Shown in pieces: positions 1,596 through 10,418 of a stretch of 43,640 bases of DNA. The stretch is from Minisyncoccota bacterium (GTDB lineage: Bacteria > Patescibacteriota > Minisyncoccia > Phycocordibacterales > UBA9973). Position 1 is the stretch's first letter. Each line of letters begins with the position of its first letter. The notes beneath the pieces are model-generated. The model did not search any database, was not told where the DNA came from, and worked only from the letters and a program-made list of their open reading frames with translations. The position numbers and the translations under genes are program-made. The stretch covers positions 1 through 43,640 of the forward strand of contig JAGOOZ010000001.1 in NCBI GenBank assembly GCA_017992215.1. Direction: 5' to 3'.

Positions 1596-2483
1596 CTAAT
1601 CACCAAGTGTCATTTTGACTAACGCTAAAACATCTTCTTTTGTTTTAGCAGTAACCATAAAACGCCCTAGATGACAAAATACAGAACCCTGGATGCCTGT
1701 TACGTCCGCTAATTCTTGGTGGTATTTCCCCGCCCATGTTTCAGGAAAATATATCTTACACTCCATTGATCCCTTTTTAACACGCACACCTTCTGCCTTC
1801 CATTGACCATCATTCATCCGAGGGGCAATTACGAATAACGCCTCAGGAAATGTGAGCGCGACTTCTTCCCACGGATATCGATCATCAAGAATAAGTACAC
1901 GTTTATCCTCTGCTTTATTGTATGCATCAATAACAGCACGTTCACCTTCTACCCTGTCACGTGCTTGAATAATCGCACGAGCAAGTATTTTCTCAGCAAT
2001 AGCAACTGCTTCAAAAAATCCTTCATCAACATAGTTTGAATCTTCTTTCCATGTTGGTCGAAATGTATACAATCCAGCTGAAAATAAATACGGAACAATA
2101 TCACGTGTAAGAGTAAACAAATCAACACCGTTATCTGGTGCATCGATTGCTTGTACGAGATACGCATCGAGAGCGTCGGCTACTTCAAGTGAGCCACAAA
2201 TATCAGGTCCGTACTTTTTCCACACAAGACCAAAAGAGGCATACGGTATGCTATTGGGACGATTGCCGGCACGTTCTGGTTGATGATGATCAAAACGGTC
2301 TTTCTCGGGGTCGTAGATTCCTCCAACGTCATAGACAACATCTGCTTTCTCAATAGTACTCGCATCACGACTACGAATAATAGTCACGTTATTACCAAAA
2401 CGAAGTTTTAATATTGCTGTTGCAAATACATCATCAGCATGAAATGTACTATTGTGAGTGACGAGTATCTTTTTTGCCTCCAT
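1596..2483 (-). CDS. MYG1/UPF0160-family metal-dependent hydrolase
   Basis: Start chosen at MEAKKILVTHNSTFHADDVFATAIL, the family N-terminal signature (THxGxFHxDxxxA). The 21 upstream codons of the ORF track overlap the neighbouring gene. Confidence 0.8.
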   Translation of the reverse strand: MEAKKILVTHNSTFHADDVFATAILKLRFGNNVTIIRSRDASTIEKADVVYDVGGIYDPEKDRFDHHQPERAGNRPNSIPYASFGLVWKKYGPDICGSLEVADALDAYLVQAIDAPDNGVDLFTLTRDIVPYLFSAGLYTFRPTWKEDSNYVDEGFFEAVAIAEKILARAIIQARDRVEGERAVIDAYNKAEDKRVLILDDRYPWEEVALTFPEALFVIAPRMNDGQWKAEGVRVKKGSMECKIYFPETWAGKYHQELADVTGIQGSVFCHLGRFMVTAKTKEDVLALVKMTLGD

Positions 2484-2487
2484 AGAA

Positions 2488-2832
2488 TTAAATACGCAAC
2501 AATTTTGTGATAAGCCAGTTAAGCACAGAGACAACAAGTGCACCAATAAATGCCGCAGTAAATGTTGTCACTGAGAATCCATTGATAACCCCAGAACCGA
2601 GATACCAAAAGATTGCACCATTGATAAAGAGAGAGAAGAATCCGAGTGTGAGCACATTGAGTGGAAGCGTGAGGAGATTGATGATTGGTCGGAGGAACAT
2701 ATTGATAAGCGTAAGACATGCACCAACAATAAGCACCATCCACACAGGGTCAATACGAATACCATCTTTAATAACAAATGTTGTCGCCCAAATTGCAATA
2801 GATAATGCAAGCCAATGTAAAAGTATTCTCAT
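2488..2832 (-). CDS. Small integral membrane protein, DUF360 / phage-holin-4-like family (YvlD-like)
   Basis: 114 aa, 3-4 TM helices, pattern LINMFLRPIINLLTLPLNVLTLGFFSLFINGAIFW typical of PF04020-type proteins. Confidence 0.65.
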   Translation of the reverse strand: MRILLHWLALSIAIWATTFVIKDGIRIDPVWMVLIVGACLTLINMFLRPIINLLTLPLNVLTLGFFSLFINGAIFWYLGSGVINGFSVTTFTAAFIGALVVSVLNWLITKLLRI

Positions 2833-2948
2833 CCCGTTAGAAGCAGGTCGCGGTCGTTATAAACGAAGCGCTTTCTGCATAATTAAAAATAAATTTTATT
2901 ATAAAATTCCCGTTTCTTTGAAACCGTGACCGCGGCTTTGAGCGGGGA

Positions 2949-3401
2949 TTAAAACAAACTATCAACGACTTCTTTGACTACAGTCCCATCTGCTTTACCC
3001 TTCAAATCTTTCATAAGCGCGGACATGAGCATTCCCTTTTTTGTTGCATCAGTAATACCGAGTTCAGTTTGTTTTGCACGAGCGATTGTTTCGACTTCGC
3101 TTTTTTCCATCAGTGTTGGAAGATATGCTTCAAGAATGGCGAGTTGAGGCTTCTCTTCTTCGACGAGATCCATGCGTCCACCTTTGGTAAACTGTTCGAT
3201 AGAATCTTTGCGCTGTTTTGCGCTTCGAGTAATAACCGCGAGTGCTTGCTCATCGGAAAGCATATCTTGAGGTGTTTTACCTGAGGCAACTAATTCATTT
3301 GTAAATGCAGTAACAAGCCCACGCATAACTTCAAGTCGAACGGAATCTTTCGCCATCATAGCCTTCTTTATTTCTCCTTTTATTTCTTCGTGTAATGACA
3401 T
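2949..3401 (-). CDS. GatB/YqeY domain protein
   Basis: 150 aa. N-terminal IKxxIKxAMkakDxxrLxxxR pattern and the C-terminal GKADG...V motif of the YqeY family. Confidence 0.85.
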   Translation of the reverse strand: MSLHEEIKGEIKKAMMAKDSVRLEVMRGLVTAFTNELVASGKTPQDMLSDEQALAVITRSAKQRKDSIEQFTKGGRMDLVEEEKPQLAILEAYLPTLMEKSEVETIARAKQTELGITDATKKGMLMSALMKDLKGKADGTVVKEVVDSLF

Positions 3402-3408
3402 GGGTCTA

Positions 3409-4005
3409 TTATACCATGTGAACTTTAATTACTCCCATATTATCTTGACCTGATAGATATCCAGTCCATTTTTCGAGAATCGGCACTTCTATGGGTAACG
3501 ATATTTCTGGTTTTGTAAAAACAACGATGCTTTTAAATGATTTCTTGAGTATTTGCTCTTTTGCAATACAAATATCAATATTACCAGACAAGACAACGTT
3601 CTTTAAATCAAGACAATTATTAAAAATATCCTGGCTGAATGCTTCTATATTTTTTACAAGGACTACTCTCTCATTTAAATCTTGCAAAATACTAATTGCT
3701 TCAATAAATAAATTTTCATTTCCACTTTCAAGAATAAGTACCTGATTATCTTTATAATTCTTTATATCTTCGACTGAATTAATGAACACAACTTTGGAGT
3801 GGTCTGATCCAATTTGTTCTAAAAAATTATCTTTCGCCATTGGAAAAGCAGTAAAAAATAATATTTTAGAACCAGACAAAAAAAGATCGACAACGAGTGT
3901 AATAGTAAAATGAGAGCCGCCGGATTTTTCTCCGTAGATAATCAAAAACGGCAAATCTTTTTCTTTTACTTGATATAATTCATTATTTAATATGATTTTA
4001 TTCAT
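3409..4005 (-). CDS. Hypothetical protein (degenerate P-loop-like GEKSGGSH near the N-terminus)
   Basis: 198-aa ORF tightly packed behind yqeY. No confident family. Confidence 0.55.
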   Translation of the reverse strand: MNKIILNNELYQVKEKDLPFLIIYGEKSGGSHFTITLVVDLFLSGSKILFFTAFPMAKDNFLEQIGSDHSKVVFINSVEDIKNYKDNQVLILESGNENLFIEAISILQDLNERVVLVKNIEAFSQDIFNNCLDLKNVVLSGNIDICIAKEQILKKSFKSIVVFTKPEISLPIEVPILEKWTGYLSGQDNMGVIKVHMV

Positions 4006-4047: not shown

Positions 4048-4776
4048 ATGTCAAATAATATTATTTTCCTCGATACCGAAACAACAGGCAATGAGCCAGT
4101 AAAAGATTTTGTGTGTCAGCTTGCATTTAAAACCTCTGACGAAACGTTCTGTGAACTCTTCAAACCACCAATTCCTATCCCACCTGAAGCAAGTGCTGTG
4201 ACACATATCACCAACAAAATGGTCGCGGACAAAAAGGCATTCAGTGAGAGCGATAACTACGGTACTATCAAGCTCATGCTCGAAGCCTCTAATGCAGTCA
4301 TGGTCGCCCATAATGCAAAGTTTGACTTGGCGATAATTTCCAAAGAAGGAATTGTTCCGACAAATTTTATCTGTACTCTTCGTGTTGCTCGCGCACTCGA
4401 TAAAGATAATGTAATTCCACAATACAAACTCCAATACCTTCGTTATTACCTCGATATTGATATCGAAGCCGACGCACATGACGCACTCGGTGATGTACTC
4501 GTGCTTGAGAAACTATTTGAGCGACTCCTTGCAAAGACAATGAAGGAATACAGTCTTGATGAAGATGGTGCGATAGAAAAAATGATAGAAATATCTTCAA
4601 AGCCATCACTTATGAATCTCTTTTCGTTTGGAAAACACAATGGCAAAACTGTGGCTGAGGTGAAAAATATCGACCCAGGATATCTCGACTGGATGCTCAC
4701 TCAAAAAGAGCAAAACCCCGACAACGAAGAAGATTGGATTTATACGCTCAGGTATTATTTAGGAAGATTGCAATAA
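4048..4776 (+). CDS. DEDDh 3'-5' exonuclease (DnaQ/ExoX-like) with a C-terminal ExoX-type tail
   Basis: ExoI FLDTETTG, ExoII AHNAKFDL, ExoIII HDALGD. C-terminal FGKHNGKTVAEV...GYLDWM module. Confidence 0.85.
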   Translation: MSNNIIFLDTETTGNEPVKDFVCQLAFKTSDETFCELFKPPIPIPPEASAVTHITNKMVADKKAFSESDNYGTIKLMLEASNAVMVAHNAKFDLAIISKEGIVPTNFICTLRVARALDKDNVIPQYKLQYLRYYLDIDIEADAHDALGDVLVLEKLFERLLAKTMKEYSLDEDGAIEKMIEISSKPSLMNLFSFGKHNGKTVAEVKNIDPGYLDWMLTQKEQNPDNEEDWIYTLRYYLGRLQ

Positions 4777-4809: not shown

Positions 4810-4910
4810 CCGCGCCTCACGTTGGAATTGTTTACTTGGCATTGGTGCACAATACACTACATTAAGAGGACCAATTGCCATTCAAAATAACAAAAAATTA
4901 AAAAGATGTC

Positions 4911-4947
4911 AAATAAAAAAATAAGGCCATTTTCTCAAATGACCTTA
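4911..4947 (-). terminator. Rho-independent terminator closing the minus-strand RAMP-helicase-RNA locus
   Basis: Minus-strand reading: UAAGGUCAU-loop-AUGGCCUUA. It is fully paired only on the minus strand (one G-U; C-A on plus). Followed by a U7-rich tract (plus A-run 4911-4921). Confidence 0.7.
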
Positions 4948-5004
4948 TCATTAGCGTAACATACGCGTACTTGACCTAGGCTAACCACTCGGTACTGTAC
5001 GATA

Positions 5005-5203
5005 ATATTTTATATTTTTAAAAAGAACGAATTTTAATTTGTCCGGCTCATTATATGAGCCGGACCCTTACACTAGAAAACAGTAGTTCAGACTGCGGTG
5101 GGACACCATACTAAAACCAACCTGACGATAACTTCTACCAAAACACAAACGAATTTATGATTTGGATAAAAGTGCCGACCCAATAAAACGGGTCGGCAAC
5201 TCC
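5005..5203 (-). ncRNA. Structured RNA module, copy 0 (downstream of the helicase)
   Basis: Contains box B (cttctacca..caaacgaattta..gataaaag, 5132-5172), variable hairpin H1 (5173-5198), box A (aaaaagaacgaattttaattt, 5020-5040) and 10-bp hairpin H3 (5041-5065). Same order and spacing as the copies at 7.1-8.0 kb. Confidence 0.55.
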
Positions 5204-5255
5204 GCACATTACAGCAACGGAGAATGATTCACCGAAGCAAACACAGCATTATTTT

Positions 5256-7076
5256 TTATTTTAATAACCTTAACGCATCACTCACACACTCATCAAATTT
5301 CTTTGAAGATTGATATGCTGGTTGCAACCACGCAGGTAATGCACGAAGTGCAATCCTTTGATATTGCTGTGAAATCAAAAATGTCACACCATAATCATCA
5401 ACACTTCGTACATTGCGACCAGAACCATTCAATATCTTTACCATCTCTCTTCCATCCCAGATACCCCATTTCCCCCCAATACCGAAGCGCCTTTCTTCAA
5501 AAAGAGCTTTTGGGTCATTAGGTGGAGAGTATGATGGGCGAAGCATAAAGATAACAGGTGCAATTCCATTCGGCAAATCAATTCCTGCTCCATATTGAGC
5601 CATGGTACCAAGCAATGCATCACCTTGTCCTTTTTTAAAAAGGGCTACAGCTTGCTTTGGCAAAATACCGTCACAATATGTAGTTATTGGTAAATCAAGA
5701 GATGCCGCAATTGCTTTAAACTTCTCTCTTTCACTTTCAGATACAACAAGCACCAAGCTACGAATACCCTTTTTAGCGAATAGTTTACAAGTCTCAGCAA
5801 TTCTCTTCAGAACTTTTCCCTTCGTTCCCTTGTTCAGATAATTCATAGAAAGGTTTGGCATATCAATTGGTCTGTAGATTCTCCGTTTTTCAGCAGAGAA
5901 ACCAGATTTGAATGAATAAAAAGGTAAAGAACCTTTCTCTCTCCATCCTGTCTCGATACGAAAAACATTTGCATTTTCTTCAAACATTGCTGACACAGGC
6001 CAAACAAGTTTTGGGAAAATTTTCTGAACAATTGGCACCACATAATAACAACAAATGTTTAATGAATAATTTGCATTACCACTAACATTGTCTATGTGTG
6101 AGTACACATAATTCAAAGGCCTCCTTTGCTCAGTCTCGAGTGAAAATTCAAATGATTTAATATATCGATATAAATCGCGAGTAATCATTTCAAGTTTCTT
6201 TATCACTTCAATACTGTCAGCATCGGTTGGATGTTTCTTTTTCAAAACTGCGGCAACTTGTTTTTCAATGGAACTTGGTTTAATTGTTGAAAGAATTTTC
6301 ACCAACTCTGCAAGTTCTTTGTCTTCAAGAAGATTCGTTTTATTCTTGCGACTTTTTACAATCTTTATCATTGTATTTAAAAAATCGCGAAAAATATAAG
6401 ATTCTTTTATGCCATGTTCCTTTAAAAATGCTTCAATTTGCAACAAATGCCAATCTGTCACTTCATAAGAAAGTGATCTGCGTATAATGTCTGGCATCTC
6501 GTGAGCTTCATCGATAACAACTGCTTTTACATCATCCCATTCACGAGCAAATAATTTCGTAAATAAATAGAATGATATAGTACAAACAATTAAGTTACCT
6601 TGTTTGGCTTGATACTTGACATCTAGATACGGACAACGTTTTACATCTTTCTCGTTTGTATCACCAGTAGTTTGATCTACACGATGAGCACAATCTTTAA
6701 GAAGAGAACATGGCACCTGATCAGCTTTATACTTTTCAGTATAATAAAGACAATCGTACTCATTCCTGCCGTAAACAGCATGGAATTGTGGATACATCTT
6801 TTTAACTTGATCTACTTGAGCCTTATTCGGAACCAAGAGAAAATAATCACCCTTACCTTTGTGTGCGTCACGTGCGGCAAGAAGCATTGTGTACTCAGCC
6901 GCTGTTTTACCAGTGCCAGTCGGAGCGCCTAAAATAGCGCCAGATTGAATGTTGTCAAGCATAGTTAGCATTGCATGCTGACCATCTCTAATCTCCGAAT
7001 GAATACCATACGGAAAGTGCGACAGGAATTCCATGCGAGGAATCACATCTGTCTGATGTTCATGATGTTTCATCAT
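5256..7076 (-). CDS. Fe-S cluster DinG/XPD/Rad3-family ATP-dependent DNA helicase
   Basis: Walker A GAPTGTGKT and DEAH box VIDEAH. Four Cys between them (YDC, VPC, KDC, KRC) as in the 4Fe-4S domain. C-terminal helicase motifs GAGIDLPNG and RPSYSPPNDP. Confidence 0.85.
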   Translation of the reverse strand: MMKHHEHQTDVIPRMEFLSHFPYGIHSEIRDGQHAMLTMLDNIQSGAILGAPTGTGKTAAEYTMLLAARDAHKGKGDYFLLVPNKAQVDQVKKMYPQFHAVYGRNEYDCLYYTEKYKADQVPCSLLKDCAHRVDQTTGDTNEKDVKRCPYLDVKYQAKQGNLIVCTISFYLFTKLFAREWDDVKAVVIDEAHEMPDIIRRSLSYEVTDWHLLQIEAFLKEHGIKESYIFRDFLNTMIKIVKSRKNKTNLLEDKELAELVKILSTIKPSSIEKQVAAVLKKKHPTDADSIEVIKKLEMITRDLYRYIKSFEFSLETEQRRPLNYVYSHIDNVSGNANYSLNICCYYVVPIVQKIFPKLVWPVSAMFEENANVFRIETGWREKGSLPFYSFKSGFSAEKRRIYRPIDMPNLSMNYLNKGTKGKVLKRIAETCKLFAKKGIRSLVLVVSESEREKFKAIAASLDLPITTYCDGILPKQAVALFKKGQGDALLGTMAQYGAGIDLPNGIAPVIFMLRPSYSPPNDPKALFEERRFGIGGKWGIWDGREMVKILNGSGRNVRSVDDYGVTFLISQQYQRIALRALPAWLQPAYQSSKKFDECVSDALRLLK

Positions 7077-7095
7077 TTTTTCGTTATTAAAATTT

Positions 7096-7185
7096 GTGAA
7101 AGAACTAAAAATTTACTTCTACAGAACTTCAATTAAAAATTAAAATCCTGATAAAAGCAGGGATCTATTACAGATCCCCAGCTCC
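7096..7185 (-). ncRNA. Structured RNA module, copy I (truncated/degenerate, forms the helicase 5' leader)
   Basis: Box B at 7116-7185 has a diverged P2. P2 still folds as 13 bp on the minus strand with 3 G-U pairs. H1 is GGGGAUCU/AGAUCCCU. A degenerate box A (aaagaactaaaaattta) follows directly, without H3. Confidence 0.45.
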
Positions 7186-7250
7186 GGAGACTACTCTAGG
7201 GAAGCAAGCGTTACCCAGCAAGAGGATAGCGTACAGAAATAAGTAAGATT

Positions 7251-7432
7251 TATATTTTAAAAAGAACGAATTTTAGTTCGTCCTCCAGCCGAAACCGGAG
7301 GACCCGAAGAAGGGACTAGAAAAGTGAAGATTACGCAAGCACACAGCACCTCACAACACCTTAACTTCTACCAGATCACAAACGAGTTTATGATCTGGAT
7401 AAAAGCAGGGATATATCTCAATCCCCAGCTCC
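7251..7432 (-). ncRNA. Structured RNA module, copy II
   Basis: Box B 7365-7432, with P2 CCAGAUCA/UGAUCUGG compensatory relative to the other copies. Box A 7251-7280. H3 is 10 bp with a UUCG loop only when read on the minus strand. Confidence 0.55.
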
Positions 7433-7488
7433 TTACCGCTCAAGAGAGGACCGTAGTGGAGAATACGACACCACACAGCGCAACAATT

Positions 7489-7698
7489 AATATTTTATAC
7501 TTTAAAAAGAACGAATTTTAGTTTATTCAGCTCATCAGTTAGATGAGCTGAATCCAAAGATCACCCAAGATCACTTTAGTTGAGCGTGCACAACCCTGGC
7601 CGAGATCGCCACAAGTAAACGTAATCACTTCTACCAAACCACAAACGAATTTATGATTTGGATAAAAGTGCCGACCCGTTAAATAGGTCGGCAACTCC
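7489..7698 (-). ncRNA. Structured RNA module, copy III
   Basis: Box B 7628-7698, with P2 CCAAAUCA/UGGUUUGG (G-U on minus). Box A 7489-7524. H3 is 12 bp (attcagctcatc / gatgagctgaat). Confidence 0.55.
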
Positions 7699-7760
7699 GG
7701 ACACCAGATTAGAGGAGATAACAAAAGATGACGATACTGAATATAACGCTACCAAACACT

Positions 7761-7972
7761 AATATTTTTTAATTATTATAAACCACAAAGAACGAATTTT
7801 AATTTGTCAGGCTCGTATACGAGCCTGACCCAAAGAGAACACTACTTATCTCTAGCTTACTTCACAATGGGGCACCCTGCGCAAGAACGCCCTAGAGGAT
7901 TCCTACAGCACCTCAAATAAAAACTTGAGAGGCTGATAAGAATGCTCACCCGTACAAACAGGTGAGCAACTT
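7761..7972 (-). ncRNA. Structured RNA module, copy IV (box B diverged in sequence, structure retained)
   Basis: Box A 7761-7806 plus H3 gtcaggctcg/cgagcctgac. The diverged box B at 7901-7972 keeps P2 (13 positions, 1 mismatch on minus versus 3 on plus) and H1 tgctcacc/ggtgagca. Confidence 0.5.
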
Positions 7973-7997
7973 AAAACATCAATTAAAAGAACTTTGA

Positions 7998-8675
7998 TTA
8001 CTTTGCACTTTCTGGTGCATCTGTAATGTTTACCACTTCAAAACGACCGAAGCGACCTTTTTTCCAGGGTCTGAAATCTCCTACTCCAACTTTTGATCCG
8101 GAACAGGTAAATAACTCCATCAATAATTTATTATCAATTTTTGATGTATCATTAATTTTCACTGTTACCTTAAATGCCCATTCATTAAACTTCGGACGAA
8201 TAATAGCAACAGCTACGGGTGTTTTCCCTGCAGATCCTACGCCTCTCCGGGTGTCAACTTCCCATTTTTCTTCTGCGCTTTTCTGGTCTAAAAAAGGAAG
8301 GAAGGACTCCTTCACATCAATCAGATCATACAGCTCAGTACTGGTTGCAGTGGAAATTGCCTTTTTGCCGTTAATTTTAATTTGACGACCACCATTGATG
8401 AGACACCCTAAAAGATATTCGATAGGTAAACCAATTTTACCATCAGGTTTCGAATCTTCACGAATAATCTTATCAGCAGCACGATCCTTTAATGGTCTTT
8501 CTTTTTGAGAAGCCATTGAGGTTTTCGCCTTAATTCCGGCCAATTCTTCCAACGTTTCTTTTGTCATTGGATTCATAAGAATAGGAGTAATTCCTGTGCA
8601 CTCGATAACAACTGTGCGAGTCGCTGAATTGGTACTTTTACCGGTACCATTGTCAGAAGCATTAGAGCCTGCCAT
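7998..8675 (-). CDS. Hypothetical 225-aa protein with RAMP (Cas7/Csm3/Csf2-like) sequence patterns
   Basis: N-terminal strand VVIECTGITPILMN. Then DKIIRED..GKIGLPIEYLLGCLINGGR, resembling D-x-P-h-h-R-D...hPhhPGSShKGxhR. Near the C-terminus, a glycine-rich loop GVGDFRPWKKGRFGRFEV. This is pattern recall, not an alignment. Confidence 0.4.
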   Translation of the reverse strand: MAGSNASDNGTGKSTNSATRTVVIECTGITPILMNPMTKETLEELAGIKAKTSMASQKERPLKDRAADKIIREDSKPDGKIGLPIEYLLGCLINGGRQIKINGKKAISTATSTELYDLIDVKESFLPFLDQKSAEEKWEVDTRRGVGSAGKTPVAVAIIRPKFNEWAFKVTVKINDTSKIDNKLLMELFTCSGSKVGVGDFRPWKKGRFGRFEVVNITDAPESAK

Positions 8676-8826: not shown

Positions 8827-9879
8827 ATGTCTACCGTACTTATGATTGTGCTTGGGATTCTTGTTGGCCTTACTATTGGCTTCTTTTTTATGCGTCAAAA
8901 TCGGAAACCCGAAAGCGCAAAAGATGATACAGGATTCCAACTACTCCTCTCTCATATCAATGAACTTGGTCGAACGATTGACCAGAAACTTTCTGATTCA
9001 CAGAAAGATATGAATCAATCAATGCGATATCAATCTACCGAGACATCACGCATTATTGCCGATATTACCGAGAAAATCACTCGTCTCGATGAGACTAATA
9101 AACAAGTCGTTTCATTTGCTGACCAATTAAAGAATTTGCAAGATATATTGAAGAATCCAAAACAGCGTGGAATCCTCGGAGAATACTATCTCGAAACACT
9201 TCTTAAAAATGTGATGCCTCCCGGTAGTTACCAAATGCAATACGCATTCCCTGATAGTACGATTGTCGATGCGGCGGTATTTGTGAAAGACAAAATCATT
9301 CCAATTGATTCAAAATTCTCACTTGAAAATTACAATCGTATTTCAGAAACAAATGACCCAGCTGAGAAAGAACGCTTTGAGAAAATATTTGTAAATGATT
9401 TGAAGAATCGAATTGTCGAAACATCAAAATACATCCAACCCGAAGAAGGTACGATGGACTTCGCATTTATGTTTATCCCTCACGAAGCTATCTATTATGA
9501 TTTACTCATCAACAAAATCGGCGCAGTAACCGAAGACACAGAGAATCTGATTCAGCGTGCGGCAAGTAAATATAAAGTTATCATTGTGTCCCCTACATCA
9601 TTCCTCGCATATTTACAGACAGTGCTTCAGGGATTGAAAGCACTTCAAATCGAAGAGTCCGCCAAAGATATCATCAAACGTGTCGGAGAACTAGGAACGC
9701 ACCTGCGTACGTACGAAGAAGCACACCAGAAGCTCGGTAATGCCCTCGCAACAACCGTAAACCATTTCAACAAATCAAATCATGAATTTAGAAAAATAGA
9801 CAAAGATGTGATGCGCATCACGGGTGATGCGATAAGCATTGAAGCACTCACTCTCGACAAACCACAAGATGATGAATAA
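8827..9879 (+). CDS. rmuC: DNA recombination protein RmuC
   Basis: N-terminal TM helix, coiled-coil region, KQRGILGE motif and a C-terminal nuclease-like core (FMFIPHEAIY). An extended -10 TGcTAAAAT lies 6 nt upstream of the ATG. Confidence 0.85.
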   Translation: MSTVLMIVLGILVGLTIGFFFMRQNRKPESAKDDTGFQLLLSHINELGRTIDQKLSDSQKDMNQSMRYQSTETSRIIADITEKITRLDETNKQVVSFADQLKNLQDILKNPKQRGILGEYYLETLLKNVMPPGSYQMQYAFPDSTIVDAAVFVKDKIIPIDSKFSLENYNRISETNDPAEKERFEKIFVNDLKNRIVETSKYIQPEEGTMDFAFMFIPHEAIYYDLLINKIGAVTEDTENLIQRAASKYKVIIVSPTSFLAYLQTVLQGLKALQIEESAKDIIKRVGELGTHLRTYEEAHQKLGNALATTVNHFNKSNHEFRKIDKDVMRITGDAISIEALTLDKPQDDE

Positions 9880-9919: not shown

Positions 9920-10351
9920 TTAGTAAAAACATGGAGGCTGGAAACATGATCGCCCAGCATAATTATTTCCATACATTCCATAACTAGGATAATAGTATGA
10001 TGAATTCATTGGTGAATGATACGATGATTGATTGTATGATGGGTACACATAATCAGTCATTGTAATAGGAGTCTGATAGTAATATGACGGAAACTGATTT
10101 TGTACTTGTGGTAGATATGGAGCCTGTGAATACAGAGGATTCATCATATTATAGTTTGTATTGTAATAATTAGTATTATTATAATACTGCTGTTGTGGAT
10201 ATCCACCATAATACGGCTGATTAAAGCCCATTCCACCAATACCGAGACCGATAGAAAAATTCCAACCAGCCAATGCTTGAGACGGGGCGACAAAAAGACC
10301 GAGGGCAATAAACATAAACGTCACTGACGTAATACTGTATACTTTTTTCAT
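9920..10351 (-). CDS. Secreted low-complexity Tyr/Asn/Gln/Pro-rich protein
   Basis: Start taken at MKKVYSITSVTFMFIALGLFVAPSQALA (signal peptide). The mature part is dominated by Y, N, Q, P and S and ends in CFQPPCFY. Confidence 0.65.
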   Translation of the reverse strand: MKKVYSITSVTFMFIALGLFVAPSQALAGWNFSIGLGIGGMGFNQPYYGGYPQQQYYNNTNYYNTNYNMMNPLYSQAPYLPQVQNQFPSYYYQTPITMTDYVYPSYNQSSYHSPMNSSYYYPSYGMYGNNYAGRSCFQPPCFY

Positions 10352-10418
10352 AATATACGTATTGTAACGCAATTTATCTTTTTGTCAATATACTTAACGC
10401 TAACACGACAAGCCCCTA

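Follow-up and report, generated by a model that had tools for sequence, protein, structure and literature searches.

VIPR (Viral Interference Programmable Repeat) systems were reported in April-June 2026 (bioRxiv 10.64898/2026.04.26.720920, 10.64898/2026.04.26.720927). As described in the first report, they combine Vipr, a RAMP protein with a single RRM, guide RNAs (vrRNAs) built of 9-16 tandem YNNGG repeats and a conserved 3' tail, and an accessory vap gene; its Methods also list the alternative repeat consensus sequences NNNGG, YNNNG and NNNNG, with candidates of at least four units, and Vipr has been put forward as the ancestor of Cas5, Cas6 and Cas7 (10.64898/2026.04.26.720920). In the system of phage SUSP1, each repeat is bound by one Vipr protomer, GGY is sequestered, NN pairs with DNA and every third target base is skipped (10.64898/2026.04.26.720927). 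Here we analyzed 43,640 nucleotides of contig JAGOOZ010000001.1 (this whole stretch is "the window") from a Candidatus Paceibacterota bacterium, a member of Patescibacteria, or Candidate Phyla Radiation (CPR), in which genes for a 225-aa protein and a 606-aa helicase lie among repeated non-coding modules. We conclude, at a probability of roughly 0.88, that this locus is a chromosomal VIPR system of the helicase-associated kind.

In the same report, VIPR types III-V are said to carry nuclease or helicase accessory genes, types III and V being the only nuclease-bearing ones; 71% of VIPRs are viral or proviral, those characterised act in transcriptional repression and inter-phage conflict, and the chromosomal, enzyme-bearing types III and V are reported to target viruses (10.64898/2026.04.26.720920). 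Published experiments there concern the phage-borne type II, with small-RNA sequencing (sRNA-seq) for types III and V; sRNA-seq and targets are given for types II, III and V and, in the text, none for the helicase type, which appears only as a class of loci (10.64898/2026.04.26.720920). The locus in the window has every defining feature of VIPR that can be tested in sequence, and it has the minimal arrangement of vipr and one accessory gene with long intergenic arrays and without a CRISPR array or cas operon. By elimination of the two types that carry nucleases, III and V, it is probably VIPR type IV. A sequence-only reading of this DNA, which had judged that the locus matched no system it could name, must be revised in this respect, since the published VIPR classes include helicase types and YNNNG repeats (10.64898/2026.04.26.720920); its suggestion of a minimal RNA-guided system has become the best reading, and each of the three checks by which it might have been refuted turned out in its favor, namely the RAMP fold, the pentamer arrays beside homologs and the two-way synteny of the helicase described below.

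The 225-aa protein is homologous to Vipr. No model in Pfam, NCBIfam or PADLOC matched it, hence no Cas model did, and in PHROGs it matched phrog_4652 (function not known) over its full length (E 2.5e-15). When the single sequence was compared with PDB sequences, the sole credible match was chain 36pp_D, 'SUSP1 Vipr protein' (E 0.006), which covered the C-terminal GVGD-W/F-RP...RFGRF loop. A profile of 12 sequences, comprising the protein and 11 homologs, matched the same chain at E 2.5e-15 over profile positions 1-191 and chain positions 1-190. With 7290 cluster representatives at E<=1e-3, this is a large family. An AlphaFold2 (AF2) model of the protein (predicted local distance difference test, pLDDT, 80; predicted template-modelling score, pTM, 0.76) was then compared with the PDB by Foldseek, and the 50 matches listed were all CRISPR RAMP effector complexes with Cas7-type subunits leading: type VII Cas7 came first, followed by type III Csm and Cmr complexes, with a best E of 1.6e-6. 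In BFVD the model matched three viral proteins, one of them annotated 'Cas system-associated RAMP superfamily protein'. The earlier suggestion of a Cas7-like RAMP is thus borne out by both the profile match and the fold.

The protein has a single RRM core, a glycine-rich loop and a thumb. Its C-terminal G-loop reads GVGDFRPWKKGRFGRF, in which GVGD200-F-R202-P is conserved in the clade, and a long beta-hairpin (139-163) bears the invariant R160 and was assigned as the thumb by alignment to SUSP1 R138. In SUSP1 Vipr the GG bases are held by D177, W178, R179 and R138 (10.64898/2026.04.26.720927). Here these residues correspond to D200, F201, R202 and R160, all conserved in the clade, and SUSP1 H17 aligns with N35.

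We found that the 'paralogous structured RNAs' of the sequence-only reading are nine guide-RNA (vrRNA) genes, six between vipr and the helicase gene and three after the latter. Both open reading frames (ORFs), the modules and the terminator were present where that reading had placed them, all on the minus strand (Table 1), and the terminator it put at 4911-4947 corresponds to a hairpin at 4949-4920 followed by a T-run to 4911, which forms the 3' end of the locus. Its estimate of about 1.3 kb of non-coding sequence was also close to the measured ~1.28 kb, made up of 921 nt without a long ORF between the two ORFs (7077-7997) and 356 nt after the helicase ORF (4900-5255). The repetition itself was confirmed: a 60-nt box occurs in three copies (5128-5187, 7361-7420 and 7624-7683; 73-100% identity) and a 35-nt box in four (5017-5051, 7256-7290, 7501-7535 and 7782-7816; 77-100% identity), with variable sequence separating the two. 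The count of five RNA paralogs did not stand; a module of ~260 nt contains two guide units, and five modules therefore yield nine. The 'truncated module I' proposed as the helicase leader is present as a leader (7077-7114) and shows no period-5 signal.

The guide units were recognized by a sliding test of phase-specific composition, expressed as a z-score. The period-5 signal (z 2.9-5.5) was confined to the variable tracts and was absent from the coding sequence of the helicase, in which period 3 prevails; a score for runs of Y1 and S5 alone separated poorly from shuffles over the whole window, and the period-5 z-score did separate. In each vrRNA, 10-14 tandem pentamers with the consensus Y-N-N-K-S precede a 3' tail that contains a hairpin. 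Among 108 pentamers, position 1 was Y in 104 (T in 89), position 4 was G or T in 78 and position 5 was G or C in 102 (G 65, C 37), whereas positions 2-3 were near uniform and hypervariable; the background composition was T 0.37, C 0.17, G 0.22 and A 0.24. All nine tracts, of which Xm is the weakest, therefore contain at least four tandem pentanucleotides with a hypervariable NN, in a variant consensus.

It might be argued that the modules are duplicated promoter-terminator cassettes or repeats of the repetitive extragenic palindromic (REP) type in which period 5 is incidental, and promoter-like and terminator-like elements do occur in each unit, with an AAAYTCGTT box in both classes of tail. 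Against this, period 5, Y1 and S5 hold in nine tracts that are otherwise unrelated in sequence, and the signal recurs beside Vipr in 18 other loci despite diverged tails. The tracts also fit the published vrRNA definition (10.64898/2026.04.26.720920), and we regard the cassette explanation as very improbable.

The tails fall into two classes, X and Y, that alternate along the array, and a hairpin follows every tract, as expected of a conserved structured 3' tail. The X tail comprises AGYUG, a GC-rich hairpin and then a long UUCG-loop hairpin, CUUUUAU.CCAAAUCAUAAA-UUCG-UUUGUGGUUUGG.UAGAAG, whose G.U pairs fit the minus strand only; its inner stem has a different yet pairing sequence in X1 and compensatory changes in X2. 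The Y tail is a hairpin of the GUCC...GGAC type with four different stem sequences in which pairing is kept; after it come AAAUUAAAAUUCGUUCUUUUU and a TATAAA(AT) box, the latter ~5-8 nt ahead of the X tract that comes next (at most ~15 nt before X1). Rfam at gathering thresholds identified four tRNAs in the window and no match inside the locus. Terminator-like hairpins numbered 10 in the region compared with 3.1 +/- 1.7 in shuffles, every one of them on the minus strand; the count of promoter-like sites was not above the shuffle expectation. A further mark of VIPR is that vrRNAs of ~100 nt are expressed and co-purify with Vipr, and the observations here that bear on it are these promoter-like and terminator-like sites.

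The promoter-like box found before X3 also occurs 5' of X2, X1 and Xm (yTAAAA-TTCGTTCTTTTT..-TATAAA). Past the vipr stop codon there is an X-like tail and, after that, Y4; the tail of X1 runs into the helicase leader, and X0, because its tract begins 5 nt past the helicase stop codon, has no room for a promoter of its own. On the simplest reading of the sequence transcription would occur in five units, in which vipr is joined to Y4, X3 to Y3, X2 to Y2, X1 to the helicase, X0 and Y0, and Xm to the final terminator. With such a layout the protein genes would be co-transcribed with guides. Alternatively, box A, as a homolog of box B, may be a promoter of low strength (CATAAA-16-TAGAAG). Separately, we observed that the motif AAAYTCGTT(C/T) is common to both tail classes, in box A (e.g. 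5131-5171, 7624-7667) and in box B (the 35-nt copies), and that it appears again, as ATAATTCGTTCTTTCATAA, within the arrays of a related locus, L001 (8596-8628), whose proteins are only ~40-44% identical. The motif might act as a promoter spacer, as a site for protein binding or as an RNA element.

The 606-aa protein is an XPD/DinG-family iron-sulfur (Fe-S) helicase with the full four-cysteine motif, as the sequence-only reading had held. It has the motifs of helicase superfamily 2 (SF2), and Pfam assigned DEAD, DEAD_2 and Helicase_C_2 to it. In an alignment of 30 sequences the Walker A residues G54, G56, K57 and T58 and D189-E190 of the DEAH motif were invariant, with H192 in at least 90%; Fe-S cysteines C109, C129 and C148 were likewise invariant and C123 was present in at least 90%. 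In an 18-row alignment with one truncated ORF, these four cysteines were kept in 17/17 CPR homologs covering the columns. The AF2 model (pLDDT 88.8) has the XPD fold, with template-modelling (TM) scores of 0.70 to E. coli DinG 6fwr, 0.71 to 8rev_A (titled XPD in the Foldseek listing and called CHL1 in another) and 0.58-0.62 to CasDinG. In PHROGs the helicase matched phrog_2488 (E 3.7e-32). PADLOC model PDLC01439 ('typeIV_DinG; CAS-IV-A associated') matched it over its full length at E 9.5e-33, and the canonical Csf4 model only at 1e-3; PDLC01439 may lead annotation pipelines to mislabel VIPR helicases as parts of type IV CRISPR systems. CasDinG has a vestigial Fe-S domain in which three of the four cysteines are lost (PMC10450177), in line with the description in the sequence-only reading, and because all four are kept here the helicase is not a CasDinG in that sense.

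Could the locus then be type IV CRISPR-Cas in minimal or degenerate form, with a Csf2-like Cas7 and a CasDinG left after loss of the array and other subunits? The Cas7-like fold of the RAMP, the full-length PDLC01439 match and the CasDinG TM scores would agree with this. However, Tandem Repeats Finder detected no array of 25-40-nt period, and thus no CRISPR-type array, in the window, and none of the 14 nearest proteins on either side matched a PADLOC model for Cas effectors or for adaptation (Cas1, 2, 5, 6, 7, 8); the lack of such repeats and of Cas1/2, Cas5, Cas6 and Cas8-like genes had been noted from the sequence alone. Csf1, Csf2, Csf3 and Cas6/Csf5 genes, and a CasDinG with a vestigial Fe-S domain, were likewise not found among these neighbors, and the RAMP, which matches none of the Cas models searched, matches SUSP1 Vipr at full length. 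Since the layout of two genes and pentamer arrays is intact in more than 20 loci, it is not a product of decay. We therefore consider a type IV CRISPR-Cas origin highly improbable; what the sequence-only reading took as recalling type IV is an analogy, and the features that define that type are absent.

The helicase is linked to Vipr in both directions, across 24 loci in differing contexts. A full-length helicase homolog (37-43% identity) lay 0.7-2.3 kb from vipr in 21/21 CPR loci with enough flanking sequence, these loci having been chosen by a Vipr homolog at 31-53% identity. Conversely, among 86 helicase homologs at 36-99% identity, four (36-56%) were picked by the helicase alone, and Vipr adjoined the helicase in the 3/3 of these for which DNA was available (hmmsearch E 1e-66, 5e-44 and 4e-27). 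Outside the CPR clade the helicase was absent from 30/30 loci (29 bacterial, one archaeal) with Vipr matches of 27-40% identity, several of them partial, and 80 IMG/VR Vipr loci (at most 38% identity) contained a single weak partial match (L195; 23% over 277 residues, E 5e-8). The usual order is vipr, gap and helicase on the same strand; L001, L003 and L015 are divergent. Period-5 windows clustered in the gap between vipr and the helicase and just past the helicase in 18/18 related loci, and a Y...S tract started 0-9 nt after the helicase stop codon in 11/14. L012, for example, has a clean array that reads CACTG CACCG TGCTG TCGGG CAAAG CCCTG TCCTG TATAG TGAGG CGTAG CTATG TATGG (YNNNG x12) and continues into GGGUCC-hairpin-GGAC AUUUUCC. 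Pentamer tracts thus adjoin both proteins in relatives, as expected if the RNA modules belong with them.

The flanks of these loci vary, from RuvC/PBP/DnaN to EF-P/S18/SSB, RecJ/PGK or an ECF sigma factor, and these differing chromosomal contexts indicate that the module moves as a unit. In L016 (JBAYUP010000020.1) Vipr is 99% identical over its first 67 residues and the RmuC neighbor is the same. All members found of the close clade (above 40% identity) came from CPR genome or metagenome contigs, and tblastn of GenBank phage records gave no match to Vipr or to the helicase.

This two-way linkage decides against the other option left by the sequence-only reading, that of a housekeeping DinG/XPD repair enzyme amid unrelated small-RNA genes and an unrelated small protein. 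The flanking genes are indeed housekeeping genes, and homologs are named 'Rad3-related DNA helicase' in their sources. Yet the two genes remain together in different contexts, a guide tract lies within a few nucleotides of the helicase stop codon in most loci, and the helicase passed no NCBIfam equivalog cut-off (YoaA 41.7 vs 680 bits, DinG 34.3 vs 789, rad3 40.4 vs 247). We give the housekeeping explanation almost no weight.

Some related loci differ in arrangement. In L230 (Candidatus Uhrbacteria) a 303-aa Vipr homolog (2417-3397) has an insertion by which the match is divided in two, and its position is downstream of the helicase, not upstream. In L001 (4533-5698, 8334-10471), L003 and L015, guide arrays of up to ~2.1 kb lie on both outer sides, with period-5 tracts called on both strands.

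By homology to SUSP1, one Vipr protomer would bind each pentamer, with the thumb and G-loop sequestering the conserved end bases and presenting the hypervariable dinucleotide. The filament would read double-stranded DNA by a gapped code of two paired bases and one skipped, so that a guide would specify 20-28 bases over 30-42 bp, and the tail would cap the filament. By analogy with CasDinG of type IV-A and Cas3 of type I, the helicase might be recruited to the opened target, where it would translocate 5'-3' and disrupt replication or transcription of the invading element, as CasDinG does in type IV-A. It is also conceivable, though rather unlikely, that the helicase-linked CPR clade is a mechanistically distinct VIPR with a modified Y-N-N-K-S rule, guides derived from the mRNAs of protein genes and a helicase effector. 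The modified rule could involve, for instance, a third guide base or a different skip, and the helicase would act on a triplex or R-loop. If this were true, the clade would be a present-day counterpart of the step from VIPR-like ancestors to helicase-dependent class 1 systems such as type IV CRISPR-Cas, or might even be related to it.

Several observations weigh against our assignment to helicase-associated VIPR. The pentamer consensus is looser than YNNGG and, because position 5 is so often C (37/108), the 1-nt-skip rule may not apply here in the same form. A covariance model of the Y hairpin, trained on window hairpins including Y4 and Y0 (which it scored at 37.7 bits, 7802-7833, and 44.7 bits, 5037-5069, respectively, as training sequences), recovered only the window, L012, L010 and L011. 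One such model is insufficient because the tails diverge too fast, and MAFFT misaligned mixed X and Y tails. Transcript ends and processing are those predicted from the sequence, the type number was reached by elimination, and the helicase is given its role by analogy only. In addition, targets were sought with pentamer positions 2-3 under the published NN-x rule (1-nt skip), by exact-seed searches only. No self-target was found in the window with skips of 0, 1 or 2, scores being at the null level. Exact 8-unit seeds of 7/9 guides (Y4, X3, Y3, X2, Y2, X1 and Y0; 10-56 seed matches each) gave no more than chance-level matches in IMG/VR: the best extensions were 22/26 for X3, 22/24 for Y2 and 20/22 for X1 (p ~0.07 or worse after multiplicity), in targets that were identical or heterogeneous sequences and mostly not wobble-phased. 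Metagenome contigs scanned for exact copies of 12 units of X3 and of 10 units of Y2 gave 0 matches, and under rules in which each unit supplies three guide bases no signal exceeded the seed bias.

As to the individual matches, the 22/26 coded bases of X3 span 10 consecutive units in L082 (664-701) and L084, within a 278-aa, glycine- and threonine-rich ORF present on these two IMG/VR contigs, and are not wobble-phased. Those of Y2 lie in a 196-aa ORF of three contigs (L123, L136 and L148), at chance level after multiplicity. A 'conserved peptide' behind the 56 X1 matches was discarded, as the wobble-phased frame is usually not a real ORF.

The empty viral target searches would agree with a VIPR that does not serve antiviral defense, and instead silences host genes or acts for a mobile element against competitors, with the helicase involved in loading or turnover. 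Characterised VIPRs repress transcription and take part in inter-phage conflict, most are viral or proviral, and the locus lies amid housekeeping genes and not in a defense island; its different chromosomal sites in different genomes suggest mobility. On the other hand, the self-target search, which covered this window and not the rest of the genome, was negative, family searches of the neighboring proteins revealed no integrase or phage genes in the flanks, and in GC content the locus does not stand out from the remainder of the window. The confinement of the close clade to CPR contigs, with IMG/VR relatives at no more than 38% identity and no match in GenBank phages, and the viral targets reported for types III and V (10.64898/2026.04.26.720920), also speak against it. 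A role outside defense is therefore unlikely in our view, but it deserves serious consideration.

Table 1. Features of the VIPR locus (positions in the window; z, period-5 z-score).
Feature	Position	Strand	Details and basis	z
vipr gene, 225-aa single-RRM RAMP	7998..8675	-	profile match to SUSP1 Vipr; AF2; Foldseek	
Terminator-like hairpin right after vipr stop, X-type tail without tract	7943..7968	-	terminator scan, sequence	
vrRNA Y4	7806..7899	-	14 pentamers 7899-7830; GUCA..UGAC hairpin 7829-7806	4.9
Promoter-like TTAAAA-16-TATAAT before X3	7775..7802	-	promoter scan, repeat family D2; consensus match only	
vrRNA X3	7624..7761	-	13 pentamers 7761-7697; hairpin 7693-7669, long UUCG-loop hairpin ending GUAGAAGU	5.5
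vrRNA Y3	7525..7623	-	14 pentamers 7623-7554; hairpin 7553-7525	5.2
vrRNA X2	7364..7485	-	11 pentamers 7485-7431; hairpin 7427-7406, UUCG hairpin with compensatory changes	5.0
vrRNA Y2	7280..7363	-	12 pentamers 7363-7304; hairpin 7303-7280	4.4
vrRNA X1	7115..7238	-	11 pentamers 7238-7184; two-hairpin tail 7183-7115	3.0
Helicase leader at would-be Y-type tract position	7077..7114	-	sequence; no period-5 signal	
Accessory (vap-type) gene, 606-aa XPD/DinG-fold SF2 helicase, 4-Cys Fe-S domain	5256..7076	-	Pfam, PADLOC, AF2	
vrRNA X0	5131..5251	-	10 pentamers 5251-5202; hairpin 5198-5173, then UUCG hairpin	
vrRNA Y0	5041..5130	-	13 pentamers 5130-5066; GUCC..GGAC hairpin 5065-5041	3.5
vrRNA Xm	4911..5004	-	10 pentamers 5004-4955; final intrinsic terminator 4949-4920 and T-run	2.9

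The genes flanking the locus are Obg, YqeY, an ExoX-like exonuclease, RmuC and DnaX. The ExoX/DnaQ-like DEDDh 3'-5' exonuclease (4048-4776, plus strand), convergent with the end of the guide array, received the sole Cas-labelled PADLOC match nearby, to a generic 'Cas-associated DEDDh' model (E 1.4e-29); it is probably a housekeeping gene because no homolog adjoins VIPR in other loci. RmuC (8827-9879, plus strand), divergent from vipr, matched the DRT-associated PADLOC model RTasRmuC (E 5e-14). It is 76% identical to the RmuC of L008 (11963-12592), ~3 kb from the helicase, and has a 99%-identical copy in L016 (4801-5787); its presence near VIPR in several loci is probably coincidence. A 198-aa ORF (3409-4005, minus strand) had no match in Pfam, NCBIfam, PADLOC or PHROGs and no homolog in related VIPR loci, and a 150-aa ORF (9920-10372, minus strand), with an N-terminal hydrophobic segment and a low-complexity body rich in Tyr, Asn, Gln and Pro, had no family match. 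The exonuclease, the 198-aa ORF and YqeY were considered as further parts of the system and rejected, as they are not conserved beside VIPR elsewhere.

The locus is a genuine example of an already published kind of VIPR, and nothing in it overturns current knowledge; its value is that of a well-defined substrate for experiments. New here are an annotated helicase-linked example, nine guides with coordinates, two tail classes and a relaxed consensus, together with the predicted co-transcription of guides with protein genes and a helicase that keeps its Fe-S cysteines and is tied to Vipr in all checkable loci examined. Helicase-linked VIPR is widespread in Patescibacteria. These bacteria have tiny genomes and, as generally reported, few CRISPR systems. 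VIPR has been proposed as a form of RNA-guided DNA recognition older than CRISPR, with a non-contiguous code. Should the helicase be the effector, the locus would allow direct comparison with type IV-A CRISPR, with its Cas7 filament and CasDinG, and would be a test of whether the effectors of class 1 CRISPR arose from VIPR-like modules.

Compared with the XPD/Rad3/DinG Fe-S helicases, the 606-aa protein shares the fold (TM 0.63-0.71 to E. coli DinG 6fwr and Thermoplasma XPD 4a15/5h8w), Walker A, DEAH, the four Fe-S cysteines, an arch-type insertion and Helicase_C_2. It differs from them in sequence, with 13-17% identity and scores far under the NCBIfam equivalog cut-offs, and, unlike those in repair contexts, it sits beside Vipr and guide arrays in the loci examined. 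The 225-aa protein similarly has the RRM core, thumb hairpin and glycine-rich loop of the Cas7-family backbones (type III Csm/Cmr and type VII Cas7), which were its best structural matches listed (E 1.6e-6 to 1e-4, TM 0.45-0.56). It is nevertheless only 8-15% identical to them (top 20 matches), matches no Cas sequence model, is smaller and simpler, and is not encoded with Cas10, Cas5 or Cas6.

Type IV-A CRISPR-Cas resembles the locus in combining a RAMP on a guide RNA with an XPD/DinG-family 5'-3' helicase and no nuclease; its interference is nuclease-independent, and the working logic is likely similar. In contrast to type IV-A, however, no CRISPR array, Cas6, Cas5 or Cas8-like protein is present here, the guide consists of pentamer repeats and not of repeat and spacer, the four-cysteine Fe-S motif lost in CasDinG is kept, and the fit to Csf4 is weak (E 1e-3). 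The accession A0A1F4YLN4 belongs to a series that we take to hold CPR metagenome-assembled genomes. According to the VIPR report, it was one of the five founding structure matches (10.64898/2026.04.26.720920). With VIPR types III-V, as the report presents them, the locus shares an enzyme as accessory gene, a location on a prokaryotic chromosome and an alternative repeat consensus (YNNNG in Methods).

The characterised examples of VIPR are the type II systems of phage SUSP1 and a Pseudomonas fulva prophage. Identity to SUSP1 Vipr is only ~15-20%, so that full-length detection needs a profile, and N35 stands in place of H17. The consensus is Y-N-N-K-S and not YNNGG, the accessory gene encodes a 606-aa Fe-S helicase and not a small DNA-binding protein, and the locus is chromosomal in a CPR bacterium and not borne by a phage; here, too, two hairpin-based tail classes alternate and one guide is fused to the 3' untranslated region of the helicase. 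What the two have in common is a Vipr RAMP with a GVGD-aromatic-RP G-loop and a thumb arginine, 10-14 tandem pentamers with a hypervariable dinucleotide and a conserved structured tail, and a locus of two protein genes that has long intergenic arrays of guides to either side and no CRISPR array.

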